Positions 1,753 to 60,232 of a stretch of DNA of 64,000 nt are shown here, one piece after another. The notes under the pieces were generated by a model, which did not search any database, was not told the DNA's origin, and saw only the letters and a list, made by a program, of their open reading frames with translations. The stretch covers positions 1 through 64,000 of the IMG/VR virus record IMGVR_UViG_3300043433_000105; one strand, written 5' to 3'. Position 1 is the first letter of the stretch. Every line of letters begins with the position of its first letter. Source of the DNA: a virus (taxonomy: Duplodnaviria > Heunggongvirae > Uroviricota > Caudoviricetes). The position numbers were made by a program, and so were the translations under genes.

Positions 1753-1753
1753 G

Positions 1754-2638: not shown

Positions 2639-2639
2639 T

Positions 2640-3017: not shown

Positions 3018-3215
3018 ATGCAGACAATTCGTGAACAAGCAATTCATTACGCGCAAGAGTCTGGCTTTAAAGCCAGTTTAGGTAAAACAGATCGAAATGG
3101 AAAATACACTCCACATGTGAATGCGCTTTTTAAATCTGTGCCAGTGGAGTGGATTGAGACTTTGATTGAAAAAGTTCAACAAGATATGTTGACTAACAAA
3201 CAAAATAGTGTATAA
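3018..3215 (+). CDS. hypothetical protein
   Basis: Preceded by TGATATAAT -10-like element. Confidence 0.35.
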   Translation: MQTIREQAIHYAQESGFKASLGKTDRNGKYTPHVNALFKSVPVEWIETLIEKVQQDMLTNKQNSV

Positions 3216-3249
3216 TTGCTAACTTAACTATGAAGGATTTTAAAAACCT

Positions 3250-5277
3250 ATGAAACTCGTAACCAAACACTTTGATGAAAACCAAACTACAGATATCGCT
3301 ATCCCCATGCAGCGTATCGTCGTGGTTGACTGCTCTGGTTCCATGTATGGCGAACTGCCAAAGCTGCGCACTCAACTGAAAAACAAGCTGCCCACTATGG
3401 TAGCACCTGACGATACTCTGACCCTGATTTGGTTCTCTTCGCGTGGCGAGTGCGGCACCATTTTTGAAAATCTGAACATCACAAATGCAAAAGACTTGCA
3501 AGCGGTAAACACTGCTATTGATCGTTTCTTGGTTGCACGTGGCGCAACAGGCTTTAAAGACCCACTGGAAAAGGTTGTTGAATTGGCTATCGCTAGTTCT
3601 GATCGACCAGTTTCTTTGAACTTCATGACTGATGGTGGTGAAAATCAATCTTCGCGTTCTGAAATCATCAAGGTCTGCACCAAAGTTGCTGACACTGTTG
3701 CATCCTCTGTAGTGGTTTCTTATGGCTACTACGCTGATGACGCATTCCTAACCCAGATGGCAGAAGAAATGGGTGGTGAAATGATCGGCGCGGGTGACTT
3801 CCAATCGTATACCGATGTATTGACTCGTTCGCTGAATACTCGTGCTTCGGGTAAGCGCAAAATCGTTGAAGGCCTGCCTTTGGACACAATGATTGTGGGT
3901 CACATGGATGAAAGCTACGTGACTGCTAAAGCTGATGCATCCGGTAAAGTTGCTATGCCTTCCAACTGCATTGCATACTCATATTTCACCGGTTCTGGTG
4001 ACATTGCAGAAGTCGAAGACGAATTTGCTGCTGTGCAGGTTGTTGGTGCCTTGGTGCAACGTGGTGAGTCTGATAAGGCTTTGGAATTGTCTGGATTGAT
4101 CGGTGATGAAACTCTGTTCAATACCGTGCAGAATGCGTTCTCTAAGCAAGATTTTAACCGTGTGGTGGCCTTGGTTGGTGCTTACCATCCATTCGTTGAC
4201 AAACCCCGCAATCTGAAGTTGAAGCAAGACCCTAACGCATACAACGTGTTGACATTGCTGATGGATTTGGCAGACACCGAAGGTAACTTCCTGCATATTT
4301 CGCATCCAGAATTCAGCTACAGCGCAATCGGCGGTAAGCGTGAAACTGTTGCTGATGAAGGCGGCTTCAAGCCTGTTTTCTCTTCCAAAGAAGGTGAAGT
4401 GAAGGCTGCTATCAGCACATTGAAGTTTGACGAAGATCGGCCTAACGTGTCTATTCTGACTCGCCGCGAAGGTAGCGTTTCTTTGCCTAAAAATGAGTTG
4501 GGTTTTGGTGAATCGGTGGATAGTTTCATTTGGCGTAACTATGCTATCATTCGTGATGGTATCGTGAATGTGAAGAAACTGCCTGTTGTGCTGACCAAGG
4601 CAACTTATGACTTGCTGAAGCAAAACGGTATTCCTTTGGAGCCTTTCAAGGTCAACACCACATACGTGATTGACGTGTCTGGTATGCCTGTTATTAACCG
4701 CTCCATGGCTGCGCCTGTAACTGCTAAGGATATGTTCACATGGCAGTTTGATCTGTACAAACTGCGCGTCTCGCAAAAGATTTTGAATTCTCGTATTGAA
4801 AAGCCTGAATTCTCTGAAGACTTTGCTAAGAAGTATGGTGAAGACGGTGCTGCTTTCTTGAAGCAATATGGTGTAACACCTGGTGGTTTCTCTCCCAAGA
4901 CAACCAAGGGCGAAAGTGTTGATGCATACGTTGCAAAGGCACTGGAGATTAGTTTGTCTGGTTTGAACAGCATTCCTAAAATCTCTGATGTGGAAGCTGA
5001 TATCGCTGCTGGCAAGAATTTGACACCCGCTAAACAAGTGGTTGCAAAGGCTTTGAAGGATTTGGAACCTATCACTGATAACGAAGCTGCTCTCAAGATG
5101 CTGAAGGTCAATATCGCTATTCTGCGTGACAAGATCATCAAAGCAAAGTTTGGTGTGATTTTGGGTCGCAGAATCTTTACTGATATGACAAGTTGGGATG
5201 ATAATACTAAGACAATGGATTTTGGTCTTTCCAAGCCAATCAAAGCATCTGCTGAATTGGTTGATAAGGAAGTCTAA
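3250..5277 (+). CDS. von Willebrand factor A (vWA) domain protein, 675 aa
   Basis: N-terminal VVVDCSGSM (MIDAS DxSxS) motif followed by a large C-terminal extension. Confidence 0.7.
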   Translation: MKLVTKHFDENQTTDIAIPMQRIVVVDCSGSMYGELPKLRTQLKNKLPTMVAPDDTLTLIWFSSRGECGTIFENLNITNAKDLQAVNTAIDRFLVARGATGFKDPLEKVVELAIASSDRPVSLNFMTDGGENQSSRSEIIKVCTKVADTVASSVVVSYGYYADDAFLTQMAEEMGGEMIGAGDFQSYTDVLTRSLNTRASGKRKIVEGLPLDTMIVGHMDESYVTAKADASGKVAMPSNCIAYSYFTGSGDIAEVEDEFAAVQVVGALVQRGESDKALELSGLIGDETLFNTVQNAFSKQDFNRVVALVGAYHPFVDKPRNLKLKQDPNAYNVLTLLMDLADTEGNFLHISHPEFSYSAIGGKRETVADEGGFKPVFSSKEGEVKAAISTLKFDEDRPNVSILTRREGSVSLPKNELGFGESVDSFIWRNYAIIRDGIVNVKKLPVVLTKATYDLLKQNGIPLEPFKVNTTYVIDVSGMPVINRSMAAPVTAKDMFTWQFDLYKLRVSQKILNSRIEKPEFSEDFAKKYGEDGAAFLKQYGVTPGGFSPKTTKGESVDAYVAKALEISLSGLNSIPKISDVEADIAAGKNLTPAKQVVAKALKDLEPITDNEAALKMLKVNIAILRDKIIKAKFGVILGRRIFTDMTSWDDNTKTMDFGLSKPIKASAELVDKEV

Positions 5278-24624: not shown

Positions 24625-25683
24625 CTAAAAAAACTCGTCTAACGTTACTGCCTCTTCAAGTTCCCAACCAACAGCTTTAAAAATGTTGTTCAATGGATTC
24701 TTAAATGTCTTCTCATATTGCGTAGCACGATCCACATATTTGTGCAGTTTAAACTCCACTGGTAGATCATCAACAAACGCAATTACTTTCTCTCTAATTG
24801 GATTAGGTTCATCAATATAGATGTACTTAATTTTGTCACCTTCACCAATCGCATCGTACTTTTCATAACCATCTTTGACATCTGCCAGTAGTTTGTTGTA
24901 CATGAGAGATGCCTTAGCAGCGATTGGGGTACCTTTGATATAAACCCTGTTTGGATCACGCCACTTTGCCAGATTGTTTGCGCCGCCTGGGAAAGCAATA
25001 TCTGTAATGTTGCAGGTATTAAACTCTTTGCGCACATCCACTGCAAAATCACGTGTCTCTTGCAACTTACCGTCAATAATCAGCTTAACCGCTTCTTTCA
25101 ATCTGTCACGCACTAACTGCGGTGTACTGGATCGAACCACCTCAATACCCATGATTTTGTAATCACCATCTGGGTATCGCACACCTTCATTGTCATAGAC
25201 TTTGATTGCATACTTTTTCTTGGCACACCAGAAACCAGATGAAGAAATTGCTTCACGTTTAAAGTGAATAGTCTTATCAAAATGGTTTTGCACACGCGCG
25301 ATTTCATCAGTGGCTTCATTGATAAATGGTCGCAGTTTTGTTTCCATTAATTTATCAAGCGCATCCACAATCTTCAAGTCTGGTTGATCTTTCCAATACT
25401 TATCAACCACTGGCTTCATATTCAAATAGCAGCTATCCGTATCACTATAGAATGTGTATGTTAGATTGTCAGTTTTGAAGAATTCGTTAAACCGCTTGTC
25501 GCAGTGAGTACCGACCTTCATAATGATGTACTGACCAGAAAGCGTAATAGCCTTACCTAGTCGAGGATCGTAGAACATAAACCCTTGCTGCAAGAAAACG
25601 CCATAGAGACTGTTTGCTGCAAAAAATGTTAAAGTGAAATCGTCAGGTTCACTCCACTTTGAATTAGTGCTGCATGTCCCCAT
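24625..25683 (-). CDS. 43: DNA polymerase, C-terminal fragment (43B-like; motifs B-partial and C)
   Basis: AANSLYG (Kx3NSxYG motif B remnant) and YSDTDSCYL (motif C YGDTDS); starts with its own ATG. Confidence 0.85.
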   Translation of the reverse strand: MGTCSTNSKWSEPDDFTLTFFAANSLYGVFLQQGFMFYDPRLGKAITLSGQYIIMKVGTHCDKRFNEFFKTDNLTYTFYSDTDSCYLNMKPVVDKYWKDQPDLKIVDALDKLMETKLRPFINEATDEIARVQNHFDKTIHFKREAISSSGFWCAKKKYAIKVYDNEGVRYPDGDYKIMGIEVVRSSTPQLVRDRLKEAVKLIIDGKLQETRDFAVDVRKEFNTCNITDIAFPGGANNLAKWRDPNRVYIKGTPIAAKASLMYNKLLADVKDGYEKYDAIGEGDKIKYIYIDEPNPIREKVIAFVDDLPVEFKLHKYVDRATQYEKTFKNPLNNIFKAVGWELEEAVTLDEFF

Positions 25684-27190
25684 GCAGATCAGACTATATC
25701 ATCACCCATTTCTGGGGTTGTGCGCTTCCACTCACTTGAGTGTACTTCCTCTCGGAATAGTCGTTACACCTTCCTACAATAGTAGGCTTGGCTCGGGATT
25801 TTCTGGTCTAGATGTTCCCCGAATTCACACAATTTTCGACAGCAATTACTTGCTGAAGGTGCCAGCTTTTAACACTTTTAACGCATTTTGAAGAATATTC
25901 TTCATTTCAGATTCACGTTTAGCTGCTTTATATGCAGCGCGTAACTCGTCGTCTGTCATTTCAGATAGACTTTTCATTTTTAATAAATACTCCTGTAATA
26001 AACCACCATAAAGAGAATTAACACTGCAAACTGAAGAAATAATCCACTACGCTAACAAACATATAACAGATTTAGACTACTTTATATGGTATCTACTTTA
26101 CTGTTATGCGTTTGAAGAAACAAAAGGAACTGCAACAGAATCCCATCATATCTTACCTAAAAATAAATTTCCTGAATTTATAAAAATAAAGGACGCACCT
26201 TGGAATAGAGCAAATCTTTCTCAATTCAATCATTATATAGCTCATTATATCCTTGCTAAAGCTATGAGTCAACCATCAACAATAGCCGCATTTAATTTAA
26301 TGGGTAGATGTGCTAAAACAGAGTCTGAATTAATAATAAAAGCTAATTTATATTCTGAATTTAGAAATCAGATCGCAATAAACAATTCACTAAGAAACAA
26401 AGGTCGAAAACTGACTGCATCTCAGCTAGAAAAAATGTCAACTCATATGAAAAATAAAGTCATAGTCCACTATCCCGATTCTGATACGAATTTTCAAATT
26501 GACCGCGACGACCTTCGTTATCTAAACGGTGACGTGATTTTATGCCAAGTTGGTAGAATCCATACTGATAAAACAAAACAAAAGATGTCAGATAACGGTA
26601 TTAAAGATTGTATACAAATTTATAACATATCTAAGCCGGATAAAACTCGTTTCATCCCAAATACTGAAGATATACCACAAGGGTTTGATATCGGCAACCC
26701 ATCACACTCTAGTATTGCAGTAGAAAGATTCACTGGCGCACATCATTTTTACAACCCAACAACGAAAGAAAGTAAACGATTTAAAGTAACCGAAAATATT
26801 CCAGATGGGTTTATTCAAACAAGAGATGGATACGACAACCCATGGAAGGGAGTAGTAATCTACAAAAATTGGGTAACAAACCAAACAGAAACACATCCTA
26901 AATTAGATGAACTGCCGTTTGGTGTATCTGAAAATACATGTAAACATGCATTTATTTTTGAAGGTAAAATTACTTTTAGCCTTCAACGATTATTACGAGT
27001 TCACCCAGATAAATTTAACAATTCAGTAATTCAAAAGTTAATTCGTCTTGACGCTCCTAAGAAAATTTTTAGCTATAAAGTTTCACCATGTATTAGAAAT
27101 TATATACAAACCTTTGAATTTTACAATGACATACCTTTAGTGATACTGCCAATTTATGAAGTAGTTGATAAAATTACTCCAGAAAATTGG
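25684..27190. mobile_element. insertion splitting gene 43 (carries an HNH-type ORF on the opposite strand)
   Basis: 1.5 kb between the end of the pol N-terminal ORF and the start of the pol C-terminal ORF. Confidence 0.55.
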
Positions 27191-27196
27191 CTATAA
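26021..27196 (+). CDS. HNH-family homing endonuclease-like protein
   Basis: First ATG is at 26264, but the frame is open back to the stop at 26018 and encodes ESHHILPKNKF...WNRANLSQFNHYIAHYIL (H-N-H motif) upstream of that ATG. Confidence 0.55.
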   Translation, partial: TLQTEEIIHYANKHITDLDYFIWYLLYCYAFEETKGTATESHHILPKNKFPEFIKIKDAPWNRANLSQFNHYIAHYILAKAMSQPSTIAAFNLMGRCAKTESELIIKANLYSEFRNQIAINNSLRNKGRKLTASQLEKMSTHMKNKVIVHYPDSDTNFQIDRDDLRYLNGDVILCQVGRIHTDKTKQKMSDNGIKDCIQIYNISKPDKTRFIPNTEDIPQGFDIGNPSHSSIAVERFTGAHHFYNPTTKESKRFKVTENIPDGFIQTRDGYDNPWKGVVIYKNWVTNQTETHPKLDELPFGVSENTCKHAFIFEGKITFSLQRLLRVHPDKFNNSVIQKLIRLDAPKKIFSYKVSPCIRNYIQTFEFYNDIPLVILPIYEVVDKITPENWL

Positions 27197-28702
27197 CTCA
27201 ATGCCTCGGCGTTTTGCTTCTTCTTCAATATCCACAGACGTTTGCTTATAGCGCAACATTTCGTTCTTAGCAATTTTACGACCACCTAATGCAAAGTCAA
27301 CTACACGAGGAACGATTCCCTTCACATCCTTTCTAAACATGGCTCCGTTAGCAGCCAGTGTAAAGTCTTCGGTGATACCAAAATCTTTCAACGTCTTACC
27401 AAGTAGCATTTCATCTACAGTCACACCTTCTTTGACACCAACCAAAGTCTCTGGAGACAGGTTTAGAGCCTTCATGATGCTTGGGTATAGCGATGCAGCA
27501 TCAATGCTGATAAGCCACGCATAGAGGCCAGGAATTGGCTCAGAGACGTATGCACCTGGGATCGACTCATTACCATTGCTCTGACGTTCAATATTTACGA
27601 ATTTTTTCTCATTCAAGAGCATCGACTGGATACTACATTCCCAATACCGAACCGGCGAATAAACATCCTCAAAACAGCACTTCATCGTGTATGCCAGCAT
27701 CACACCCAAAGCAATTAAACCCTTGGCCTTATCCAACTGAGTCATGCGCTTTGTGTCAATTACGTTGTACTGTGCAAACGTTTCAATATGCTCTTCGGCT
27801 TCGCTAAACTGCTTAAACGTTGTGCATGGGTTTTCCAGCTTACCAACACCCAGATTGACTTTGGCTAAATGATCAAGACTGTATTTTTCTTCCTTTTGAA
27901 GAACAAACTTCCGGTACATTGCTTGAATGTCATAATGTGTGCGACCAACAATTGTGTATTCTTTGCGCACTTCCTCATCAATCTCATATTCACGTTCATC
28001 AATGATGCCAAATGGGGACAGGCGATTAGCCTCATCGTCACCCAATACGCGATTAATACGGTTAATCAAATATGGTACATCGAAGAATTCAGAATAGAAA
28101 CCATAGATAATATCAGGGTCTTCCTCTTGGATATAGCGGATGATTGCTTCAAGTAATTCAGCCTCGGTTTCAAACCGAACCATCTTACATCCCTCATGCT
28201 CCATAATCGTGATAGGTGCAGTGGTGTAGCTCACCATTTCACCAGTGGCATGATTCTCAAATGCAATGTGTGTAATTTCTTCCAATGCCAGATATGGGTC
28301 AGGTACACCTGGAGGGCCGTTAACACCAACACGAGTTTCAATATCAAAGCCTGTAGCCTTTAACTCAGACAACATAACCTGCATAGGTTCTTGGTAGTTC
28401 AAAGCAATGAATTCGTACTGCCACCGGTTAGGCTCGTATCCATACATCTTTATGGTGCCTTTATATTGCTTCACATACTCACGTGCTGCAGGTATAGTAT
28501 CGAACTTGCGAGGCTTCAGATTTTTACCGTAAATGCTTTTGTATTCACTCTCTTCTTTAGTCTCAAAGTAAATTGTCGGTGAGAATGGAATTTTCCCATG
28601 GACACGTACTTTCTTCCCATTTTTATGTTCGTAGCCGCGATAATAGATTTTTCCATATCGGGAACTCACATGGGTGTAAAACTGGTTAATATCTGGGTTC
28701 AT
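27191..28702 (-). CDS. 43: DNA polymerase, N-terminal fragment (43A-like; exonuclease domain and motif A)
   Basis: Exo I FDIETR; motif A DAASLYPSI; N-terminus MNPDINQFY...YYRGYEHKNGK parallels T4 gp43; start chosen at internal M19. Confidence 0.85.
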   Translation of the reverse strand: MNPDINQFYTHVSSRYGKIYYRGYEHKNGKKVRVHGKIPFSPTIYFETKEESEYKSIYGKNLKPRKFDTIPAAREYVKQYKGTIKMYGYEPNRWQYEFIALNYQEPMQVMLSELKATGFDIETRVGVNGPPGVPDPYLALEEITHIAFENHATGEMVSYTTAPITIMEHEGCKMVRFETEAELLEAIIRYIQEEDPDIIYGFYSEFFDVPYLINRINRVLGDDEANRLSPFGIIDEREYEIDEEVRKEYTIVGRTHYDIQAMYRKFVLQKEEKYSLDHLAKVNLGVGKLENPCTTFKQFSEAEEHIETFAQYNVIDTKRMTQLDKAKGLIALGVMLAYTMKCCFEDVYSPVRYWECSIQSMLLNEKKFVNIERQSNGNESIPGAYVSEPIPGLYAWLISIDAASLYPSIMKALNLSPETLVGVKEGVTVDEMLLGKTLKDFGITEDFTLAANGAMFRKDVKGIVPRVVDFALGGRKIAKNEMLRYKQTSVDIEEEAKRRGIEL

Positions 28703-28857: not shown

Positions 28858-29820
28858 ATGTCTATTTATTGCGTCTATCTTACCAGCTATCGTGGTAACA
28901 AACTCCCACCATTTTACATCGGATCAACTTCTGTTGATCGGATATTGAATGAAAATTATAATGGTAGTGTATCGTCTAAAATATATAAAAACATTTGGAT
29001 TAAAGAAAGATCATTAAACCCGCATCTTTTCAAAACTGTAATTTTAAAAACATTTGACACTAGAAATGAAGCAACAGAAAAAGAAAATAAACTGCAAAAA
29101 GCAGTTAATGCGCCAAACAATCCACTCTATATTAACAGAGCATTTGCATCAAAAATGGCATATGACGAGACTTATAATCCACTCAAGGGAATCGCATCCC
29201 CATTAAGGGGTAAAAAATACCCCAAGAGAACTGGGTCATCATTAGAAAATATTCGCGCAGGTGCTAAAAGGCGAAAAAAGATGTCACTTGAAACGAAAAA
29301 CAATGCGGATCGAAAACGTGCCGAAACAAGAAAACTGAATAATACACCTGGCTCAATGAAGGGTAAAACCCATAAGCCTGAGACTATTGCACGGTTTAAA
29401 AAAATCAGAAACGAATCCCCGCCATGGAATAAAGGTATGACAATGTTAGATGTAAATCCTGATTACATAAACCCAAATAAAGGGAATACGATATCAGACG
29501 AGCAGAGAAAAAAGATATCAGATGCAAAACATAACAATTGTCCTGAGTGGTCTGAGTCGCATAAAGAATCACATCGGTTAGCGGTTTCAGGTTCAAATTC
29601 TAATACTGCTGTAATTATTGAAATTTTCGATGACCAAGGTATTTTGCAACACACAACCCACGGAAATTTTATCAAATATTGTGATGATAATGGGCTACCG
29701 GAATCAGCATTAAGAGTTTCATATAAAAATGGCGGGTCACCGATTAAAATGAACCACCATTTAGATAAAGTTGTACCCTTTAGAGGATGGTATGCTATTA
29801 AGAAATATCCCCAAAAATAG
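28858..29820 (+). CDS. GIY-YIG homing endonuclease (Seg-like) with NUMOD3-type repeats
   Basis: IYCVY...YIGST GIY-YIG motif; repeated basic KGKxHKPETIARFKK / NKG motifs. Confidence 0.8.
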   Translation: MSIYCVYLTSYRGNKLPPFYIGSTSVDRILNENYNGSVSSKIYKNIWIKERSLNPHLFKTVILKTFDTRNEATEKENKLQKAVNAPNNPLYINRAFASKMAYDETYNPLKGIASPLRGKKYPKRTGSSLENIRAGAKRRKKMSLETKNNADRKRAETRKLNNTPGSMKGKTHKPETIARFKKIRNESPPWNKGMTMLDVNPDYINPNKGNTISDEQRKKISDAKHNNCPEWSESHKESHRLAVSGSNSNTAVIIEIFDDQGILQHTTHGNFIKYCDDNGLPESALRVSYKNGGSPIKMNHHLDKVVPFRGWYAIKKYPQK

Positions 29821-30096: not shown

Positions 30097-30324
30097 TTAG
30101 TTTGCTGCTTCGAGAAGTCTAAGAGTGCTGGCAGCAGATTCAGCATCCTTATAAAATTTGATTTTGAAATTTTTCTCAACCAGATCAGTAATGATAAGCA
30201 TGATTGATGGTTTGTCAACACCGTTATCAAAGGTCGATCCTTTGACTAGAAACCGCTTACCAAACACTCTGGGTGGTGCGGAATCAAGCATAGGGTTAAT
30301 TGGGCCTAAATTATCGTCAATCAT
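30097..30324 (-). CDS. hypothetical protein
   Basis: 75-aa ORF. Confidence 0.3.
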   Translation of the reverse strand: MIDDNLGPINPMLDSAPPRVFGKRFLVKGSTFDNGVDKPSIMLIITDLVEKNFKIKFYKDAESAASTLRLLEAAN

Positions 30325-30767
30325 ACTCGTTCAGTTCCGATATAGAGAATATAGAAATCTTTGGTCAACATATTCGCATTATTTAGATCAACAATAGTCT
30401 GCCAGAAAAATTCTTTGACGCCTTCTTTATGCATATTCAAATTGAATTCATCAGCCACGCAACATTGATATTTCATACCATTACTTCGTTGCCCTCGAAA
30501 ACTACCTAATACCGTTCGATCAGAGTAAAAACCGCCTATTTTATGAAATGAATTCACAAAGCTACAAGTCACACCATCAAAACGTAATGCGGAGCGGGTA
30601 TTTGCATATTTTTCAAGAGCAGTTGTTTTACCTGTACACCGTGGTAGATTTAGACCATACATTCTAGATGATGCGATTCGAGCAACTTCTGATATGTAAA
30701 ACCTACTATCTGGCTCTACCGCACTCTGAATGTTTACGAATTGCTCCAAAAATTTCACATCGATCAT
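30321..30767 (-). CDS. hypothetical protein
   Basis: 148 aa, between regA and pol; contains CTGKTT. Confidence 0.4.
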   Translation of the reverse strand: MIDVKFLEQFVNIQSAVEPDSRFYISEVARIASSRMYGLNLPRCTGKTTALEKYANTRSALRFDGVTCSFVNSFHKIGGFYSDRTVLGSFRGQRSNGMKYQCCVADEFNLNMHKEGVKEFFWQTIVDLNNANMLTKDFYILYIGTERV

Positions 30768-30783
30768 AATATATTAATTACCT

Positions 30784-31179
30784 TTATTTCTTTTTACCTA
30801 CTGTATACTTAGATATTAAAACCCATTCTTTTTTCACTTTGAATGGAATAATATCTATCGGGGTTTCGGGTGATGCTAAAGTAACATCATCTTTATTAAC
30901 TATAACACACAGCCCCCATTTTGCAAGCAGCTTAGTTACTTCGTTTCTACGACGCAAATCCTCTTCATCAATCTCCGCATGCTTCCCATCGACTTTAAAA
31001 AACTCTTTGTAATGCATAATGTAGTATTTCCCGCGCCTATGAAGCAAACTGCAACTCTGATAAAGTGTGTTTGATTTCTTAGACTTGATACCGATTCGGG
31101 TAAGGGATTCCACAATAATAGCGAATGAATCTGGATTTGGCAAAGTCACTTCAACGCCGTAATTAAAATTTTCTGACAT
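30784..31179 (-). CDS. regA: translational repressor RegA
   Basis: Co-linear with T4 RegA (LYQSCSLLHRRGKYYIMHYKEFF, KEWVLISKYTVG). Confidence 0.85.
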   Translation of the reverse strand: MSENFNYGVEVTLPNPDSFAIIVESLTRIGIKSKKSNTLYQSCSLLHRRGKYYIMHYKEFFKVDGKHAEIDEEDLRRRNEVTKLLAKWGLCVIVNKDDVTLASPETPIDIIPFKVKKEWVLISKYTVGKKK

Positions 31180-31222
31180 AATAAAATCATGATATAGTTA
31201 AACATGATCTTATTTATGCTAG

Positions 31223-31639
31223 TTATTTCCCGCGCTTAACTACTTTTCCGCCTTGCAGCTTTTCATACTTAGCCAGCAACTCTTCATCAATCAACGGCAA
31301 TATCTCAATAGCACGTTGAATCGATACGTTCAGGTCTTCAGCCAATATTTTGGCATAATCCATATTAATATCTGTATTCTGTTGCTTCTTTGTCCACATA
31401 CTACCTGTACGAAGTTTTGGTATGCCATAGAAATAAAAGTCGTGCTGCAACTTTTTATCTAAATCAGGATAAGTCGATAATGCGTCTACAAACAGCGCAC
31501 ATCGTGGATCATTAGACAGCGCACGGTTAACAACAAATGCTACATAATCCTTTGCGAATAATGTTTCATTGTCATATAAGTATTCTTTTGTCGAAGTAAA
31601 TGACTTGACAAAATCAAAAGGTGAACTCATTGGGGACAA
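31223..31639 (-). CDS. 62: clamp-loader small subunit (gp62-like)
   Basis: Position between regA and gp44; weak similarity to T4 gp62 (NRALSNDPRCA..VDALS). Confidence 0.55.
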   Translation of the reverse strand: MSPMSSPFDFVKSFTSTKEYLYDNETLFAKDYVAFVVNRALSNDPRCALFVDALSTYPDLDKKLQHDFYFYGIPKLRTGSMWTKKQQNTDINMDYAKILAEDLNVSIQRAIEILPLIDEELLAKYEKLQGGKVVKRGK

Positions 31640-32085
31640 TCCTCAAATTTCTTAAACAAATGATGATCGCGTAACCACATCAACATGCGACCTAGTTTAT
31701 TCTGACCAACCCCATCACAAACACCCCAATAGATATCACCCCAGTGGTTTGTTTCTTCCAGATATGCGCCGGTAGTCATATACAAACTACCTTTTAGCTT
31801 TGGTGTGGAAAACTTAGCCTTTAACGCTGTCATCATAGCTTTGTCGCGCAGACCGTCATCCCAACCATCAATCAGCTTTACTTTACTGCCTAGCTTTTTA
31901 ATCATGCTAGGTTTATCGAAAGCCATTATTTTAGCACGTTCAAATGGGTCTGCACACTTAGCAGCCATGTAAAATTGTTCGGATGATGTATATAGTTCAC
32001 CATCAACCTCAAATTCTACAGGGTAAAAATTAGACAGAAAGCGATACTCACCAGAAAAGCCAAGTATCGATCTGGTGTAAGTCAT
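31627..32085 (-). CDS. NADAR/YbiA-family (DUF1768) protein
   Basis: FLSNFYP.EFE.DGE.YTSSEQFYMAAK and DIYWGVC match the NADAR N-glycosidase fold. Confidence 0.7.
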   Translation of the reverse strand: MTYTRSILGFSGEYRFLSNFYPVEFEVDGELYTSSEQFYMAAKCADPFERAKIMAFDKPSMIKKLGSKVKLIDGWDDGLRDKAMMTALKAKFSTPKLKGSLYMTTGAYLEETNHWGDIYWGVCDGVGQNKLGRMLMWLRDHHLFKKFEDCPQ

Positions 32086-33023
32086 TATTTGAACTGCGCA
32101 GTGGACATTAGTTGAATCAGGAAAGCAACCGTGTTAATTTCTGGGTCAATTGTAGCTGATGCGCGGTACTGCGACTCTGCAATAGCCAAAATAACGGGCG
32201 GAATGCTTGCTGGAGCGAGAATTGGCAGCAGCTTGTCGTATATCCCTCGATAGAACGTAGAAGCGTCTGGAGAGGCGTTTGCGACCCATTGGCGGCACTT
32301 GGTGAAGTTCTTTTCTTTGACAAAACCAATCAGTTCATCCAGATCAGAACCATCACTCAAAGAAACGATATCCGATGTGATTTCACCAGATGATGAAAAC
32401 TTCTGCAGTTGTCCGATAGTTTTACGGAAGTCAGGAAAATGTTTACCAACCAAAACAGCTACAGCTTTTTTGTCGTACTTAACATTTTCTTGAGTTAAAA
32501 TGTACTCAGCACGTGCAAGCATCTGCTTCATTGCATCAACTTTATCAGCCTTTGCAAATTTGAAGTCAACAACTTGCAAACGCGAAATAAGAGGATCAAT
32601 AATGCGTTGCTGATAGTTGCATGTAAAAATAAACGATGCATTGCTAGAGAATTCATCCAAGAATCCACGGAGCGCCGGTTGTGCAGAATTTGAAAGGTAA
32701 TCAGACTCATCCAAAAGAACAATCTTTCGACGATCTTCCATGGAGACGGTACTTACAAACTGAGTCAGTGTTGTGCGGATCGTATCAATGTTGCCTTCCA
32801 AAGATGCATTGATAACCAAAATTTCAGCATCAACTTCATCAGCAATAGCACGAGCAGCAGTTGTTTTACCAATACCGCCAGTACCAGCAAACAACATGTT
32901 AGGAACGATACCAGACTTGATATTATCCTTCAACATCTGCTTTGTGGCAGGTGGCAGAATAGTATCGTCAACACGCTTTGGACGATATTTCTGCTCCCAT
33001 ACTAGCTTTTCAAAATTACTCAT
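32085..33023 (-). CDS. 44: clamp-loader large subunit gp44 (AAA+)
   Basis: FAGTGGIGKTT Walker A; sensor motifs; ATG overlaps upstream gene. Confidence 0.85.
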   Translation of the reverse strand: MSNFEKLVWEQKYRPKRVDDTILPPATKQMLKDNIKSGIVPNMLFAGTGGIGKTTAARAIADEVDAEILVINASLEGNIDTIRTTLTQFVSTVSMEDRRKIVLLDESDYLSNSAQPALRGFLDEFSSNASFIFTCNYQQRIIDPLISRLQVVDFKFAKADKVDAMKQMLARAEYILTQENVKYDKKAVAVLVGKHFPDFRKTIGQLQKFSSSGEITSDIVSLSDGSDLDELIGFVKEKNFTKCRQWVANASPDASTFYRGIYDKLLPILAPASIPPVILAIAESQYRASATIDPEINTVAFLIQLMSTAQFK

Positions 33024-33240
33024 TACTTTTTTTCCAACCTTGTGAAATTAACCATTCATGATAAATTTCTAACGCACAACACATCATGTCGGCGTCAGAC
33101 CCATCATCATCTTTAAAGTGACCAAAATATTCAACTGCGATATCTCGCCGCTTCATACTTGGAGAAATTGGTGCTTGACCAAGGTACTCAAGAATACCTG
33201 TGGTCTTATTTACACCATAGACTGCTACATCTTCACTCAT
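33016..33240 (-). CDS. hypothetical protein
   Basis: 74-aa ORF. Confidence 0.3.
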   Translation of the reverse strand: MSEDVAVYGVNKTTGILEYLGQAPISPSMKRRDIAVEYFGHFKDDDGSDADMMCCALEIYHEWLISQGWKKSNE

Positions 33241-33243
33241 AGT

Positions 33244-33663
33244 TTAACTCGCAACGTATTCTTTGGCAAGTGTTGATACTTTGCCAGCGTCATACATACC
33301 TGGAAATGCAGTCTTGAAGTGAGTCATAATTTTACCAAGCTCTTTGCTGCAGGTAGCCAGAGCAGCACGAATTTCTTCGTCACTCATTTGCTTAGGCAGA
33401 TAAACTTGAAGTGCTGCATTTTCTTTGACAAGAATTTCAGTTTGCTCTTGGTCACCAACCAAAAGTTTGATAGTGCCATTGTTGTTATCAATAAACTTTT
33501 TCACAACAGCAACAACTTCGGCATCAGTGGTTTCACGATTACCTTTGTTTTTACCAATAGCAGAAGCCTCACCAATCAACGTAGTGAGAACACTAGCTTC
33601 TACTGTTTGACGTTGCTTACGAAAGCTGAGTTGATCAGCTTTAATTTTCTCCATTAAGCTCAT
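33244..33663 (-). CDS. GatB/YqeY-domain protein
   Basis: MSLMEKIKADQLSFRKQRQTVEASVLTTLIGEA...EEIRAAL resembles the YqeY family; start moved to internal Met. Confidence 0.55.
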   Translation of the reverse strand: MSLMEKIKADQLSFRKQRQTVEASVLTTLIGEASAIGKNKGNRETTDAEVVAVVKKFIDNNNGTIKLLVGDQEQTEILVKENAALQVYLPKQMSDEEIRAALATCSKELGKIMTHFKTAFPGMYDAGKVSTLAKEYVAS

Positions 33664-34094
33664 TACGGCTCCATTTCTTTTTGTCACTTGTTTTAAATTT
33701 ATTATGCAGATCAATGATTGTCTTATCGACAAAATTGATCTGCATAGTTGTCTGACCTGCAAAAGATGTCACAAAACTTTGCTCACGTTCAAGACGATTC
33801 ATTGCGTTTCGAGTCAACCCTTCATTTAAATGAATATAACCACGAGCAGTTAAGCCCATGATAAACAAAACATAATCGGTGAATCGACTGAAGTTTATTT
33901 CATGTATTTGCATGAAACTGATTATACACTAGATTAGACCTAAGTTTTTTCAACGCATTCAAAGTTTTTTCACGTTTCATGTAGGAAGAAATATCGTTTA
34001 CATTAAATAGAATTGTAGCACAATTTTATGCTACTGTCAATAAAAATGGTCTTCGCGATGCGTCAACATCCAAGACCTCTAACACTAAGGAACA

Positions 34095-34940
34095 GTGCCA
34101 GCCATGAATATTTATTACGTATATAGTTACGCAGACCCAACCACCAATGAAATTTTTTACATCGGTAAAGGTAAAAACAATCGCAAATTTGATCATTTAA
34201 AAGAAGCTAAAACTACAAAAAATAGTCATAAGCTGAATAAAATACGTTCAATATTAAGTAATAACTTAATGCCTGTAATCAATGTAATACAAGATTGTCT
34301 ATCAAACGAAGAAGCGATTGCATTGGAGAAAGAATTAATTAAAAAATATGGTAGACGTGATATTGGGACAGGTATATTGACCAACGGCACAGATGGTGGT
34401 GATGGAGTTATTGGCGGTTCACAATTTTTTAAAGACAGTGTTTCTAAACGTAAAGCGGGTAAAGTGACTGCAAAAAATTTAATTACCGGCGAGTTTATCG
34501 AATGTACAAAAGAAGTTTTTGATATTGACGCAAATCTAGTAGGCGTGCGACATGGTATTGAAAATATACACGCGCCAAAAGGATTGGTCACTGCAAAAAC
34601 TAAAACTGGGGACATAATCAGCGTTTCAAAAGAAGAATTCGACAGCAATAAAAATTTAGTCGGGATTAACTCTGGGAAATCGGGATTAACCAGTCACTTA
34701 AATTCAAAAACATGTAAATGTGAAAAATGTGGTGAAATGCATACACCTAGTAGCTACAAACAATTTCATGGTGAAAAATGTGGTAAGTACAAATTTTCTG
34801 AAGAAAGATTAAAAGCAATGAGTATTGCCCAAAAATCTTTACCTAAAATGCATTGTAAATGTTGCTCTAGAGATATAAGTCAAACCAACTGGATTAGGCA
34901 CTTAAATTCTAAAAAACACTTAGATATGGCGGTGGAGTAA
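34095..34940 (+). CDS. GIY-YIG homing endonuclease (Seg-like) with C-terminal zinc-finger DNA-binding region
   Basis: IYYVYSY...FYIGKGK GIY-YIG motif; C-terminal CKCEKC...C..C..H fingers. Confidence 0.8.
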   Translation: MPAMNIYYVYSYADPTTNEIFYIGKGKNNRKFDHLKEAKTTKNSHKLNKIRSILSNNLMPVINVIQDCLSNEEAIALEKELIKKYGRRDIGTGILTNGTDGGDGVIGGSQFFKDSVSKRKAGKVTAKNLITGEFIECTKEVFDIDANLVGVRHGIENIHAPKGLVTAKTKTGDIISVSKEEFDSNKNLVGINSGKSGLTSHLNSKTCKCEKCGEMHTPSSYKQFHGEKCGKYKFSEERLKAMSIAQKSLPKMHCKCCSRDISQTNWIRHLNSKKHLDMAVE

Positions 34941-35530: not shown

Positions 35531-36415
35531 TTATTTCTGAGGTGTCAACACCATCCCATATTCATCAACCTTTGGATAAATCTTCTCAGGTTCTTTGAAA
35601 ATAAGTTTGTTTTCTTTGAATGGCCGGTAGTCAACATGGTGATGCCAGCGACTGAATTTGAATACAATCTTTGACACATCTGGATGCAAATCAACCAACA
35701 TTTGCGATTTAGGTATGGTACCCTCATGTGCATAAAATTCTTCGGTGTTGCCACCCTTCATACGCTGCGTAGTGACCTTTTCACAAAGGAAAGCATTGAA
35801 CTGAATAGTACACAAACCATCTTTCAAAACACGCAAGGAAAGATCGGTGTCTTCGTTGTAGCGACCACGCCAACGATAGCCAGAATCATTCTCAATAAGA
35901 AGACAGGAATAGATTCGAGTATTTGTAATGAATGGTGGTACCTTGTCGGTTTTCTTTGCAAAACCTTCATAGTTCAAACCAGCAACAGGCACATTTGTAA
36001 ATCGATCAACAAAGTCTTCTGCAGCAGCCAGAATAGCACCAGTGGCAACTTGAAATTTGTTATTATCGTTTAATCGAACAAAATGCTGGATGTTGTCATC
36101 CATGACCCAGTGGCGTTTGAATCCGTTTTGTTTGGAATGATCTAGGCAGAAGTTACGGGCGGCACCTGGGCCTTTGCTTTTGGTAAATCCCAAATCATCA
36201 CATGTGTCATATTCTTCCAGATACTTATGATCCAGAATAATCACATCAGCTAATGGAGTGCAATTCTTTTTGTAGTCATCATATTGAGACTGCTCCACAA
36301 CAATAAAGTGTGGCACGTGCATACGTGTGAGAGCCTTGGATGTTAGTTGGTTCTCAAAACGGTTTTTAGAGACGATATAGACCGGATAACGTGGATTCAT
36401 GACTTGGATACCCAC
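35531..36415 (-). CDS. putative GT-A-like glycosyltransferase/nucleotidyl-sugar transferase
   Basis: VYIVSKNR...GPGAARNF...WVMDDN (DxD-like) pattern; assignment tentative. Confidence 0.35.
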   Translation of the reverse strand: MGIQVMNPRYPVYIVSKNRFENQLTSKALTRMHVPHFIVVEQSQYDDYKKNCTPLADVIILDHKYLEEYDTCDDLGFTKSKGPGAARNFCLDHSKQNGFKRHWVMDDNIQHFVRLNDNNKFQVATGAILAAAEDFVDRFTNVPVAGLNYEGFAKKTDKVPPFITNTRIYSCLLIENDSGYRWRGRYNEDTDLSLRVLKDGLCTIQFNAFLCEKVTTQRMKGGNTEEFYAHEGTIPKSQMLVDLHPDVSKIVFKFSRWHHHVDYRPFKENKLIFKEPEKIYPKVDEYGMVLTPQK

Positions 36416-38787: not shown

Positions 38788-39828
38788 TTAAACAAACAAA
38801 CACTTCAACAATTCGATGCGTTTTTCTTTGATGGCTTTACCTAACAAAGCACCACCCATCATATGAAAATCAGCAGCAGTGACAGTGTTGCACAATTTTA
38901 CTGCGATCTTCAACAACTTCACATCACCTGCGCTGATAACACGCAACATTTCCATGGAAATGACATCTTCAACCAAGCTACTCATGCGGAAAGCATCGAG
39001 TCGCAACAAGGTGTCATATGTAGACTCAGCATTAGAAAAGTTTAGATTCCTGATAGCAGAAGCAAGACGTTTTGCAGTCGCAGAAGGCCAGATTGTTGTT
39101 TTTCCATCACTAGCAACTGCCGAAAGTTGATCTAGGCTATTAACCCAACCCAACCGCACAAAATTGCGACGAGGCAAGGCATTCTTGAAAAAATCTGAGT
39201 TGACAGGGCCAATGAAATCCAACTTGTTGAAAAAGTCATGCAGCAAACAATCATCATCGAGAACCTTTTCAAGTTCACGCCAAAAACGCTCTGCAGGTAG
39301 TTCATTCAAGGCACCGGAGTCGATTACTTCACGTGCGAGTTTGACGGAGTACATAGAGACACCCCAATCATAACGAGCAGCAAAACGAGCCATGCGCAGA
39401 ACACGCAAAGGGTCTTCTTTGAATGCGTCAGACGTAACACGGATAACACCGTCTCGGATGTCTTTCTGACCACCAAATGGATCAATGATTTGACCAGTCT
39501 TCAAATCCTTTGCCATGGCATTACAGGCAAAGTCTCGACGGAAAAGGTCATCTTCGAGAGTCACATCAGCGCCGAATTCACATTCAAAACCAAGGTAACC
39601 AGCACCCACTTTACGCTCACGACGAGCTAATGCATATTCTTCTTTGGTTTCTGGGTGAAGAAACACAGGAAAGTCTGCGCCAACCTGTTCAAACCCCAGA
39701 GAAATCATTTCTTCTGGAGAGGAACCAATCACAACATAGTCGCGATCTTTTGGAGTGGCACTCATGACTTCATCACGGACAGCACCACCAACCAAGTAGA
39801 CATTGAGTTCAGAGATAGATGTTTTCAT
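38788..39828 (-). CDS. tRNA nucleotidyltransferase (class II CCA-adding enzyme / poly(A) polymerase family)
   Basis: YLVGGAVRD head-domain signature, DxD catalytic pair (RDFACNAMA region), RRD motif. Confidence 0.75.
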   Translation of the reverse strand: MKTSISELNVYLVGGAVRDEVMSATPKDRDYVVIGSSPEEMISLGFEQVGADFPVFLHPETKEEYALARRERKVGAGYLGFECEFGADVTLEDDLFRRDFACNAMAKDLKTGQIIDPFGGQKDIRDGVIRVTSDAFKEDPLRVLRMARFAARYDWGVSMYSVKLAREVIDSGALNELPAERFWRELEKVLDDDCLLHDFFNKLDFIGPVNSDFFKNALPRRNFVRLGWVNSLDQLSAVASDGKTTIWPSATAKRLASAIRNLNFSNAESTYDTLLRLDAFRMSSLVEDVISMEMLRVISAGDVKLLKIAVKLCNTVTAADFHMMGGALLGKAIKEKRIELLKCLFV

Positions 39829-41513: not shown

Positions 41514-41813
41514 TTAAACATCTAAAAAAGTTGTATTCGCTAATCTCACCAAAACATCACCATGGCAACGTTTTGGTCGGCACCAGCAACCCAAAACTTT
41601 CCCTTCTAACTCATGAAGAGATTTGATTAGATCGGGCTGATTTAGTAACCACTGCTCATACTTTTCGATCACATCATCGCGATATCCATCTTTACCTATA
41701 GTAAATGGATTTCCCCATTTACTAGGTCTTCCTATGTAAACATCATAGGCTTCTTCACAGTGATTAACAACTCTTGGCATAATATAAATGTTGGCAGGCT
41801 GGACACAACTCAA
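41514..41813 (-). CDS. DUF4326-like protein (NADAR-related fold, tentative)
   Basis: YDVYIGRPSKWGNPF...LGCWCRPKRCHGDVL pattern typical of DUF4326. Confidence 0.5.
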   Translation of the reverse strand: MSCVQPANIYIMPRVVNHCEEAYDVYIGRPSKWGNPFTIGKDGYRDDVIEKYEQWLLNQPDLIKSLHELEGKVLGCWCRPKRCHGDVLVRLANTTFLDV

Positions 41814-47750: not shown

Positions 47751-48545
47751 TTATAGCATGGTTTTGGTGTGATAGTCAAACAAGGCATTAAAAACTGATT
47801 TGATATCATGATCATAAAAGCCTGAACTGTTAATGTTGTTAAATTCCAACACTTTAACTTCGTCATCGACCAAAGCAGTATCCATTACCACACAATCACA
47901 TGGTAACCATACATCAGCCAATCTTTGCGCTTCTTCAATCACTGCAGTGTCTAATTCCTGCTGTAAATTCATTTGATCATGGGCACGGTACATTGACCCA
48001 GATATGACTTTACCACCAACAATGAACCAACGCCACTCGGCCTGAATAGTCTTTGGGGTATTGATCACGATATCAGTTTCCGGTGCCATGTAATAGCTAC
48101 CTGGGCCACTTTCCATCATCGACTTAAACCATTCAATGATTTCCTTTGGCTCCATTACGGTACCAGAAAATTGCTTATCATCAAGGCTAGGTCGAATGAA
48201 GTATTCTTTATGCCAACGATCTTGATTGTTTTCAAGAAAAAATACCAACTCTTTTGCCGTTTGAATTTGATCATTCACCATATCAGAACGGTGTTCGACA
48301 AAGTTGTGATAATTCAACTTGGTAAGGTCATGATGCAAACCTTTCCATCCTCTTTTAGCTGCAACCCGAGCCAATAGGTTAGAACCGTAGGGAATATAGT
48401 TTAAACCTCCCAGGTCTTCGTTTGCCGCGATTTCTTCGGTAAATGGTATAGCACCTACCCAAACAACGGGAAGATGGCCTGTAGCCCTTCTAATCTTTTC
48501 AAGCGACTGAGCGTTAATGAGGTTGTGTTGGATTACGAATTTCAT
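47751..48545 (-). CDS. ATP-grasp fold enzyme
   Basis: FIRPSLDDKQFSGTV, EWRWFIVGGKVISGSMY, DEVKVLEFNNINSSGFY (ATP-grasp C-terminal E-x-N motif). Confidence 0.6.
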   Translation of the reverse strand: MKFVIQHNLINAQSLEKIRRATGHLPVVWVGAIPFTEEIAANEDLGGLNYIPYGSNLLARVAAKRGWKGLHHDLTKLNYHNFVEHRSDMVNDQIQTAKELVFFLENNQDRWHKEYFIRPSLDDKQFSGTVMEPKEIIEWFKSMMESGPGSYYMAPETDIVINTPKTIQAEWRWFIVGGKVISGSMYRAHDQMNLQQELDTAVIEEAQRLADVWLPCDCVVMDTALVDDEVKVLEFNNINSSGFYDHDIKSVFNALFDYHTKTML

Positions 48546-49012
48546 GCTAGTTCTTTCGCATAACAAATAAGTTCATCCAGTGTATCAACCATGGGAATAT
48601 TAAACCGATCACAAATAATTTCCACATTACCCTTGCGCCAAAACCCATCAGGGCAACAAACAACAGCATTGCGATATTGACCTGCAATTAACCCTAACTC
48701 CATTAGAGTAATAGGTGATTTCGTGTTTGGATCAAAGTAAAAAACAATAAGCGAAGACTTAAACAAGTGATCAATTTCCCAATTGACTTGCTGATTGAAC
48801 TGCTTATCATGAATGCTTTGAACCCATGAAGAATCCCAGTCATCGCGGCGAGGATTGTAGATAGTTACTTCAGTACCACTTAATGCTAATGCGGTCGTGA
48901 GTCGAGTTTGCCAGTCTTCAGCAACACCCATTTCAATAGAGCCTGCCAGAAAAATGGAAAATTCATTCGATTTTACACTACTTGTATCTTGCGGGGATTT
49001 AAAAATTTTCAT
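48542..49012 (-). CDS. nucleoside 2-deoxyribosyltransferase-like protein
   Basis: IFLAGSIE...W......YNPR...SSLIVFYFD...ITLMELGLIAG pattern of the NDT/DUF4062-like fold; start at MKIFKSP. Confidence 0.45.
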   Translation of the reverse strand: MKIFKSPQDTSSVKSNEFSIFLAGSIEMGVAEDWQTRLTTALALSGTEVTIYNPRRDDWDSSWVQSIHDKQFNQQVNWEIDHLFKSSLIVFYFDPNTKSPITLMELGLIAGQYRNAVVCCPDGFWRKGNVEIICDRFNIPMVDTLDELICYAKELA

Positions 49013-49181
49013 AGCTTGTTCAACTCTCGCCAACCGAGTTTTGCAATATGATATTTTTGGTGTCATCTTCACCAACAAGTAAACCACCAAAGATATGAAC
49101 AAATTTTTTAGAACTCATGAAAAAATGAGTACAACCAGCACGTTCTTGTCGAATTGTTTTAAGTTTTCGTTGTTTCATAAA

Positions 49182-59117: not shown

Positions 59118-59795
59118 TTAATCTTCCCACTTGCTAGATTTTTCGTTGGCAACATACAGTGTGTATGTCTTACCAGTGTTTGCAAAACGAGCAATGCGCT
59201 TTGTAGACAGTGATACTTCATAGTTACCACTCATCAATTTAATGTTTTCCAAACGAATGTCAACCGCAAAATTACGATCAGTTTCCCCAACATCAACACT
59301 AAATGTATTGAACGAGGTGGATGGATTACCGTCTTTATCCAGAGTCAACAATGTGCATGTGATCTTGCTACCGTCGCCACCGATGCGCAGCATTTCAGAA
59401 CCCAACACAGCGCCTGCCTTCAACAGTGACTTCAGGTTTTCTTCAGTCAAAGTAAATGTTGCGTCAAAACTTGGCTCTGGCAATTTCTTATCTGGGAATG
59501 CCAAAATCTCAGGCGCAGCATATCGATATTCTACACGATTTTTACCTTGGCTAATGGTCAAAGAAGACTCACCAAATTCCAGTTCTGGTTCGCTAAACAA
59601 GCTAATCACGCCAAGCAATTGAGACAGGTCATAGATACCAAAGGATTTTGGAAACTCGTCTTCAATAGTAGCACCCGCATACATGTTACGCTCGACAGTA
59701 CGAGTATGAATGTAGTTACCCGCTTCAATCATCACGTTACGATTAATGGAGGAAAAGTTCTTCAAAATTTCCATGGTTTGTTTGCTAATCTTCAT
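59118..59795 (-). CDS. 45: sliding clamp gp45
   Basis: Co-linear with T4 gp45 (MKISKQTMEILKNFSSINRNVMIEAGNYIHTR vs MKLSKDTTALLKNFATINSGIMLKSGQFIMTR; YDLSQLLGVISLF). Confidence 0.8.
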   Translation of the reverse strand: MKISKQTMEILKNFSSINRNVMIEAGNYIHTRTVERNMYAGATIEDEFPKSFGIYDLSQLLGVISLFSEPELEFGESSLTISQGKNRVEYRYAAPEILAFPDKKLPEPSFDATFTLTEENLKSLLKAGAVLGSEMLRIGGDGSKITCTLLTLDKDGNPSTSFNTFSVDVGETDRNFAVDIRLENIKLMSGNYEVSLSTKRIARFANTGKTYTLYVANEKSSKWED

Positions 59796-59842: not shown

Positions 59843-60232
59843 TTAAATTTTACAACCGTACCACTCATCAGCATAATGTACGGCGGCAGCAATCATGTTT
59901 TTGTAAAATCCTTCGGAGTATGTCAACTGCCTCATCTGTTTGATAAAGTCTGTTTTCATCGCGATCAACTCAGTTAATGTGTACCTGCGCGTCTCACACA
60001 TCTCCTGCATCATTCCAATGTCACCAGATCGGCGCAGATAATCTGTACCACCATCGACACTTACAGAGCCACACCCACAGGCGCGGAAATCATGTCGGTG
60101 GGTTGATTCAACAACATCACCGCAAGACTTGCATTTAACGGCATTCCTAACAATCTTATAGAAGTGCCGTTTATAAGTCTCAAGATGCTCCATTGATTTG
60201 TTTAATCCAAAGTATTTGGTCGTGACAATCAT
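59843..60232 (-). CDS. hypothetical Cys-containing protein
   Basis: 129 aa with CKSCGD...CGCG. Confidence 0.35.
   Translation of the reverse strand: MIVTTKYFGLNKSMEHLETYKRHFYKIVRNAVKCKSCGDVVESTHRHDFRACGCGSVSVDGGTDYLRRSGDIGMMQEMCETRRYTLTELIAMKTDFIKQMRQLTYSEGFYKNMIAAAVHYADEWYGCKI

Follow-up and report, generated by a model that had tools for sequence, protein, structure and literature searches.

Known NADAR enzymes and a NADAR gene in a T4-like phage

Guanine is ADP-ribosylated by the toxin DarT1, and NADAR proteins undo this modification (Schuller et al. 2023; PMC11543638). DarT2 modifies thymidine, and none of the NADARs tested works on thymidine-ADP-ribose or against DarTG2 (PMC11543638, PMC11125620, PMC11825919); in the work of Cihlova et al. 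(2024), 4 of 4 Escherichia coli or phage NADAR subtypes cleaved guanine-ADP-ribose (G-ADPr) in vitro and 0 of 4 cleaved thymidine-ADP-ribose. Johannesman et al. (2025) named T4 gp30.3 AdfN, found it necessary and sufficient for DarTG1 resistance, and reported that NADARs unrelated to it, those of Bas32/33 and Bas60, neutralise DarT1 too, none of these proteins acting on DarTG2. In E. coli, DarT1 is neutralised by AdfN-Bas32/33, which also rescues RB69, T5, and Bas25 on DarTG1. Here we describe a NADAR gene (31627..32085, minus strand, 152 amino acids) of the YbiA-family type, resembling AdfN-Bas32, that lies between the clamp-loader genes gp44 and gp62 of an uncultured T4-like phage with a guanine-plus-cytosine (GC) content of 39.8%. 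The stretch analysed comprises positions 1 to 64,000 of IMG/VR virus record IMGVR_UViG_3300043433_000105 and is called the window below. Judged from its relatives, the encoded enzyme most likely removes ADP-ribose from guanines of phage DNA that a DarT1-type toxin has modified (probability of about 0.6).

The gene encodes a NADAR with intact catalytic residues

A preliminary description of the window, made from its letters alone, had assigned this open reading frame (ORF) to the NADAR (YbiA/DUF1768) family from short signature strings, and the profile searches bear this out. The strings are present in the translation, which includes RFLSNFYPVEFEVDGELYTSSEQFYMAAK and GDIYWGVCDG, and Pfam PF08719 (NADAR, formerly DUF1768) matched residues 13-140 of the 152-residue protein with an E-value of 1.1e-17 and 65.2 bits, above the gathering cut-off of 35.1 bits. 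The ORF also matched PHROG 1017 (E 3e-38). In a sequence search of the PDB, the sole relatives of solved structure were E. coli YbiA (2b3w; E 1.1e-13) and the NADAR of Phytophthora nicotianae (PnNADAR; 8bau; E 8.5e-11), the latter crystallised with ADP-ribose (ADPr).

For the structural comparison that the preliminary description had proposed, we aligned 68 homologues and fed the alignment to AlphaFold (AF2), which returned a model with a mean predicted local distance difference test score (pLDDT) of 94.5. Foldseek placed this model at a template modelling (TM) score of 0.81 to 2b3w and 8bau, in agreement with the NADAR alpha+beta fold. The residues named by Schuller et al. (PMC11543638) as ADPr-contacting or catalytic in PnNADAR were mapped via a HMMER alignment, and seven of the eight are present in the window protein (PnNADAR/window: E43/E36, K50/K43, W89/W75, R93/R80, E125/E111, D130/D117, and W133/W120). 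Among the 68 homologues, each of the seven is either invariant or conserved to at least 90%, with E36 and E111 invariant and K43, W75, D117, and W120 at 90% or more. The catalytic residues, whose Glu/Asp members the preliminary description had considered might be lost, are kept as E36 (codon 31980-31978), K43 (31959-31957), E111 (31755-31753), and D117 (31737-31735; all minus strand), and the conserved Glu/Lys pair corresponds to E43/K50 in PnNADAR, E88/K95 in the E. coli C7 protein, and E36/K43 in T4 AdfN. Family, fold, and catalytic residues are established by these data, and on sequence grounds the product is small and stand-alone, a YbiA-family-type NADAR N-glycosidase whose catalytic residues are intact.

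The window NADAR belongs to the YbiA family and is close to AdfN of Bas32/33

The position equivalent to E125 of PnNADAR separates the branches of the superfamily, being Glu in the YbiA family, Asp in BC4488/DarG1, and His in the T4-type phage clade (PMC11543638). Since the window protein has E111 here, it falls in the YbiA family sensu de Souza and Aravind. In pairwise comparisons, BLASTP gave 94 bits and 39% identity (pairwise E 3e-30) with AdfN-Bas33, 59 bits and 32% identity with E. coli YbiA, and 20 bits (E 0.016) with T4 gp30.3. The AdfN-Bas32/33 protein was identified via locus tag bas33_0070, and AdfN-Bas60 was left out of the comparison. The features of a DarG1/BC4488-type antitoxin are missing, as the protein starts about 10 residues ahead of the core, has Glu rather than Asp at the diagnostic position, and has gp44 and gp62 as its neighbours; a PADLOC scan returned no DarG-type match, its sole match being the candidate family PDC-M42C.

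To place the protein relative to housekeeping enzymes we used TIGR02464, the NCBIfam equivalog for riboflavin-intermediate N-glycosidases, which has a cut-off of 73.7 bits. The window NADAR scored 66.0 bits (E 4.5e-18) and AdfN-Bas33 66.8 bits, both under the cut-off, and true YbiA scored 169.5 bits, so that the window NADAR is as distant from housekeeping YbiA as the validated anti-DarT1 enzyme is. Together, these comparisons indicate that, in sequence, the window NADAR shares the neighbourhood of AdfN of the T5-like phages Bas32/Bas33.

The predicted substrate is guanine-ADP-ribose on phage DNA

We infer the substrate and the counter-defence role from homology to the validated AdfN-Bas32/33. 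A host DarT1-type (DarTG1) or similar guanine-directed ADP-ribosyltransferase would put ADPr onto guanines of the phage DNA, and the NADAR would hydrolyse the N-glycosidic bond between ADPr and guanine, so that replication could continue. An anti-DarT counter-defence had been suggested in the preliminary description, and its core stands, DNA de-ADP-ribosylation being the best supported function given the 39% identity to AdfN-Bas32/33. Two parts of that suggestion fare less well. DarT2 had been named as the maker of the guanine adducts, which is wrong, as DarT1 modifies guanine and DarT2 thymidine, and the argument from position within the replisome operon is weak (see below). The idea itself is not new, because counter-defence by phage NADARs had been described before under the name AdfN (Johannesman 2025).

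Several points weigh against DarT1-directed guanine repair. The phosphate contact R79 of PnNADAR corresponds to S67 in the window protein. YbiA and T4 gp30.3 cleave G-ADPr in vitro yet do not rescue DarT1 toxicity in uninfected cells, and activity on G-ADPr in vitro is thus no guarantee of protection in vivo. The location between gp44 and gp62 is weak and not specific evidence for a replication-linked function, and the translational coupling of gp44, NADAR, and gp62 discussed below is suggested by overlaps alone. Finally, two close relatives, P0004 (85 bits) and P0012 (75 bits), narrowly exceed the TIGR02464 cut-off, so that no sharp line can be drawn towards housekeeping YbiA-type enzymes.

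This last point bears on a different function, namely that of a housekeeping-type YbiA N-glycosidase which would destroy reactive ribosylamino-pyrimidine intermediates (the riboflavin side of GTP metabolism) or damaged nucleotides during phage nucleotide synthesis. Besides the two relatives above the cut-off and the TIGR02464 match of the window protein itself, the YbiA-family glutamate E111, the annotation of many phage homologues as riboflavin- or GTP cyclohydrolase II-related, and the presence of dCMP deaminase, GMP reductase/IMP dehydrogenase (IMPDH), and glutaredoxin genes at the same gp44|gp62 junction in other phages are consistent with such a role. We consider it quite unlikely, as the window score stays under the cut-off, far below that of YbiA and level with that of the anti-DarT1 enzyme AdfN-Bas33, and no riboflavin-pathway gene was found among the scanned ORFs of the window. 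Moreover, YbiA also cleaves G-ADPr in vitro, and for that reason resemblance to YbiA cannot separate the two functions.

The enzyme could instead reverse base ADP-ribosylation by transferases other than DarT1, whether pierisin/ScARP-like (acting on guanosine and cytidine), YarT-like, or encoded by the phage itself. Cytidine-ADPr produced by ScARP or Scabin is removed by NADARs including the YbiA-type (PMC12945103), the non-DarT toxin YarT has a YbiA-like protein as its antitoxin, and Johannesman et al. describe the enzymatic mechanism of NADARs as independent of which toxin made the adduct. However, no ADP-ribosyltransferase gene was found among the screened ORFs of the window (64 kb of genome), and DarT1 is the sole phage-relevant target shown experimentally for this branch; we consider this alternative very unlikely.

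A DUF4326 gene and the question of soluble substrates

The window also encodes a protein of the DUF4326 family (PF14216; E 5.9e-29, 101 bits against a gathering cut-off of 25) in the variable region, 10 kb from the NADAR gene (41514..41780, minus strand, 88 amino acids from the ATG, in a TTG-extended ORF reaching to 41813). The ATG at 41780 is the probable start, because a database protein that is identical over the matched stretch has 88 amino acids. The Aravind group places DUF4326 in the rhodanese-phosphatase superfamily, with frequent fusions to NADAR, Macro, and SLOG domains (PMC9503650), and the DUF4326 protein of the window is predicted to be an enzyme of the ADPr/NAD network. This ORF had been described as a second member of the NADAR superfamily: the gene is real, whereas the superfamily link is unproven. 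A profile-profile comparison of NADAR and DUF4326 with hhalign gave a probability of 0.2%, and we rejected the link at sequence level; a search of PDB sequences with the DUF4326 profile gave nothing significant.

Possession of both genes is compatible with a third function for the NADAR, in which it would act on soluble ADPr derivatives (immune signals or toxic ADPr) or on RNA ADPr, maybe serially with the DUF4326 protein. Besides the frequent fusions of DUF4326 to NADAR, Macro, or SLOG, a possible role of the domain in processing phosphates linked to ribose has been reported (PMC9503650; PMC7824862). This proposal is older than the experiments in which three of three tested phage NADARs countered DNA modification by DarT1, no soluble substrate has been demonstrated for NADARs of this branch, and the two window genes lie apart (31.6 kb and 41.5 kb) and unfused. 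We regard a soluble or RNA substrate as unlikely and retain guanine-ADPr on phage DNA as the most likely one.

The NADAR gene overlaps gp44 and gp62

The placement between gp44 and gp62 given in the preliminary description was confirmed, both neighbours being identified by PHROG and Pfam matches and the overlapping junctions being read directly from the sequence. The large (AAA+) clamp-loader subunit gp44 is encoded at 32085..33023 on the minus strand (PHROG 168, E 2.3e-98; Pfam Gp44_lid, AAA, and DNA_pol3_delta2), and the small subunit gp62 at 31223..31630 on the same strand, with its ATG at 31630 (Pfam Phage_clamp_A, E 1.5e-09; PHROG 225, E 8.6e-20). The next gene past gp62 encodes the translational repressor regA (30784..31179, minus; PHROG 242, E 1.5e-45), and a YqeY-like gene lies upstream of gp44 (33244..33663, minus; Pfam YqeY, E 5.2e-11). 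The minus-strand block from about 33913 to 29798 reads orf, YqeY, orf, gp44, NADAR, gp62, regA, and its largest intergenic gap, calculated from the ORF coordinates, is 43 nt. Gene order and overlaps are established observations. The YqeY-like gene is kept upstream of gp44 in the contigs L001, L002, and L010-L013, and it is also conserved in more distant relatives (L002, L003, and L013).

At the first junction the stop codon of gp44 and the start codon of the NADAR gene share one base (TAATG, 32083..32087, minus), and no Shine-Dalgarno-like purine run was found upstream of the NADAR start; this combination suggests termination-reinitiation coupling. At the second, the NADAR TGA overlaps the ATG of gp62 by three bases (ATGA, 31627..31630, minus). 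A Shine-Dalgarno-like GAGGA for gp62 (31640..31644, minus) lies 9 nt ahead of the gp62 ATG, embedded in the codons F-E-D-C-P of the NADAR C-terminal tail. As start and stop codons overlap on both sides, ribosomes leaving gp44 would probably translate NADAR and those leaving NADAR would translate gp62, and the NADAR would be produced alongside the clamp loader as replication begins. In T4, genes 44 and 62 are reportedly translationally coupled (Torgov et al. 1998).

The best match to a sigma-70-like promoter, TTGACA-17-TACAAT with TG (34012..34040, minus), stands at the head of the block and is a candidate early promoter by consensus match. Promoter and terminator scans of the region and block gave counts not above the shuffled expectation, and the T4 late-promoter motif TATAAATA occurred once in the window against 3.5 expected by chance, which is uninformative.

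A stronger version of this arrangement, in which the de-ADP-ribosylase is wired into the translational relay of the clamp loader with the gp62 ribosome-binding site inside the NADAR tail, appears quite improbable to us. If true, it would mean that a counter-defence enzyme is made at a fixed ratio to the replisome, that loss of the NADAR would disturb the supply of gp62, and that the NADAR may work with the clamp loader or clamp at the replication fork; it would also hint at a replisome component as the phage factor that T4 AdfN requires. We also considered the C-terminal tail HHLFKKFEDCPQ as a clamp-binding peptide and rejected this as unsupported, since only the close clade has the tail, and more distant phages in which the gene order is the same lack it. 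The gp62 Shine-Dalgarno element embedded there accounts better for the conservation of the tail.

The gp44|gp62 junction is an accessory-gene slot

The location at the junction ensures that the NADAR is co-expressed with the replisome. To assess what that location says about function, we compared the junction in other phages. The two genes are directly adjacent in T4 and in BUCT-ZZ01; in cyanophage S-WAM1 they are separated by a 2-oxoglutarate (2OG)-Fe(II) oxygenase and a DNA methyltransferase gene, and in Stenotrophomonas phage DLP_6 by a small ORF. We then sampled 80 IMG/VR loci with a gp44 41-49% identical to that of the window (environmental T4-like loci L096-L175), in 78 of which gp62 lies downstream on the same strand. 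The spacing was below 100 nt in 30 of the 78 and at least 100 nt in 48, including 32 with at least 400 nt. None of the intervening sequences of these 78 loci encodes a NADAR. A Pfam scan of ten inserts gave matches in eight, to cytidylyltransferase-like, IMPDH/GMP reductase, Rv2179c-like exonuclease, FAD oxidoreductase, dCMP deaminase, N6/N4 DNA methylase, 2OG-Fe(II) oxygenase, and glutaredoxin families. Unrelated genes thus fill the same junction, and position alone says little about what the NADAR does. The argument from the replisome operon that had been made in the preliminary description is weak for the same reason, 48 of the 78 sampled loci carrying at least 100 nt of diverse and unrelated genes there.

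Two further observations concern the inserts. A membrane-like ORF of about 95 amino acids recurs among them, and the Rv2179c-like family seen in the slot of L113 (4154-4759) is represented in the window by a 3'-5' exoribonuclease gene adjoining gp45 (60180-60710, minus).

In other T4-like isolates, YbiA-type NADAR genes were found in the tRNA region (pf16) or beside a QueD-like gene (Bhz51). A literature search combining NADAR and clamp loader gave no report of the present arrangement, and the gene context of this AdfN-type NADAR is new as far as the literature searched.

The NADAR gene is conserved and constrained in metagenomic relatives

A megablast search of positions 30300-33800 against 50,697 phage records gave no match, and hence there is no close sequenced isolate; the best gp44 match was 51%, to Synechococcus phage BUCT-ZZ01. 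NADARs are widespread in phages: with tblastn, 711 phage records carried a homologue of the window NADAR, all below 60% identity, and among isolate phages of the collection none reached 60%, the best being about 47% among the matches listed. The order gp44-NADAR-gp62 is kept in an uncultured clade over NADAR identities from 100% to about 47%, and was found in metagenomic relatives with NADAR identities of 99, 92, 81, 72, 56, and 52%. A contig with a 47% identical NADAR (L029) has the same NADAR-gp62 junction, no gp44 being found on it, and in another relative (L003, 56%) the NADAR gene lies elsewhere, between gp45 and YqeY.

Stop and start codons overlap at every junction checked, as ATGA, GTGA, or TAATG in L002, L004, L011, and L013. 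The same site of the NADAR tail carries GAGGA or AAGGA in L002, L004, and L011, and AGGA/GAGG-like sequences in L014 and L029. Compared with L011, nonsynonymous divergence (dN) was lower in NADAR (0.043) than in gp44 (0.096) and gp62 (0.130); synonymous divergence (dS) was saturated in this comparison, so that dN alone is usable and dN/dS is not estimable. The GC content of the NADAR gene and its GC content at third codon positions (GC3) match those of the neighbouring genes. Conservation under purifying selection is established by these comparisons, which indicate that the NADAR is a long-resident and strongly constrained gene of the lineage.

Other genes of the window and its relatives

Gene 43, for the DNA polymerase, is divided in two: one piece encodes the N-terminal part with exonuclease and palm domains (27191-28702, minus) and the other the C-terminal part (24625-25683, minus), which ends in TLDEFF, which we take to be a C-terminus of the T4-type clamp-binding kind. 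The halves are parted by plus-strand ORFs (25682-27196), one of them of 310 amino acids without a Pfam match, and the same split occurs in L002 (9874-12717; 499 and 317 amino acids, 'divDNApol'). Two plus-strand ORFs of low GC3 (28858-29820 and 34104-34940) interrupt the minus-strand replication block and have N-termini resembling GIY-YIG homing endonucleases; in L001, the identical contig, the second matches the Pfam family LEM-3 GIY-YIG. Both look like free-standing homing endonucleases. The clamp gene gp45 (59118-59795) lies 26 kb upstream of gp44, the gap being a variable region of small ORFs; in T4, gp45 and gp44 are adjacent. Within the variable region, a 346-residue protein (38788-39828, minus) has a PolyA_pol head domain of the CCA-adding/tRNA nucleotidyltransferase type (E 4.3e-19).

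Several genes concern DNA or nucleotide modification. A TET-associated glycosyltransferase is encoded at 35531-36400 (minus; Pfam TAGT, E 6.7e-53) and suggests hypermodification of the DNA with glycosylated hydroxymethyl-pyrimidines, and no TET/JBP dioxygenase was found among the window ORFs scanned. In L002 (SRR22387957_40104, the 72% relative), positions 1-4553 upstream of YqeY-gp44 hold a cluster of the preQ0/7-deazaguanine type with radical SAM, PTPS/QueD, GTP cyclohydrolase I, and PAPS_reduct genes, together with a glycosyltransferase gene, at the site that TAGT occupies in the window phage. Stenotrophomonas phage Bhz51 has its NADAR gene directly next to the QueD-like gene (L095, 3456-4121), and NADARs may have a recurring association with guanine-modification genes. 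Two overlapping genes at 47751-49066 (minus), one for an ATP-grasp protein (R2K clade, E 2.3e-19) and one for a nucleoside 2-deoxyribosyltransferase-like protein (E 2.5e-35), may form a nucleotide or DNA-modification pair.

Comparison with known NADAR systems

With the present locus, the phages that carry AdfN-type NADARs come to include a divergent, uncultured T4-like lineage. The current picture of counter-defence against DarTG is unchanged by it, and the slot survey warns against inferring function from the gp44|gp62 position. The arrangement lends itself to the question of whether production of a counter-defence enzyme is tied to synthesis of the replisome. T4-like phages have thus acquired NADARs of two branches, the His type of gp30.3 and the YbiA/Glu type of the window.

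Among bacterial and eukaryotic NADARs, the DarG1/BC4488-type antitoxins (Geobacter lovleyi 8bat; E. coli C7) share superfamily and chemistry with the window protein and reverse guanine ADP-ribosylation by DarT1. PnNADAR (8bau) differs in its length of 189 amino acids, with an N-terminal extension and an internal insertion, and E. coli YbiA in being encoded on the chromosome in a LexA-controlled operon and in giving no protection against DarT1 in vivo.

T4 AdfN (gp30.3) is, like the window NADAR, a stand-alone protein of 152 amino acids from a T4-like phage, with E36 and K43 at the same residue numbers, and its gene adjoins replication and repair genes (the DNA ligase cluster), at another genomic locus. 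In contrast, it lacks an NCBIfam match, its similarity to the window NADAR is barely detectable, and its clade has His at the position of Glu 111, groups with DarG1, and requires a T-even factor for full activity.

The closest described counterpart is AdfN-Bas32/33 (Escherichia phage HildyBeyeler, T5-like Markadamsvirinae), which like the window protein is a stand-alone NADAR of about 150 amino acids without an N-terminal extension. AdfN-Bas33 and the window NADAR share the block LxExNxWGDxYWGVCxGxGxNxLGxxLMxxR and the E, K, and E catalytic positions, and in Bas33, too, the gene lies among genes of replication and nucleotide metabolism (ribonucleotide reductase, dihydrofolate reductase, thymidylate synthase, and RNase H). 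Unlike AdfN-Bas33, the closest clade of the window NADAR has the C-terminal tail described above, and unlike AdfN of Bas32/33, the window NADAR belongs to a T4-like phage and sits inside the clamp-loader pair, overlapping its neighbours on both sides.
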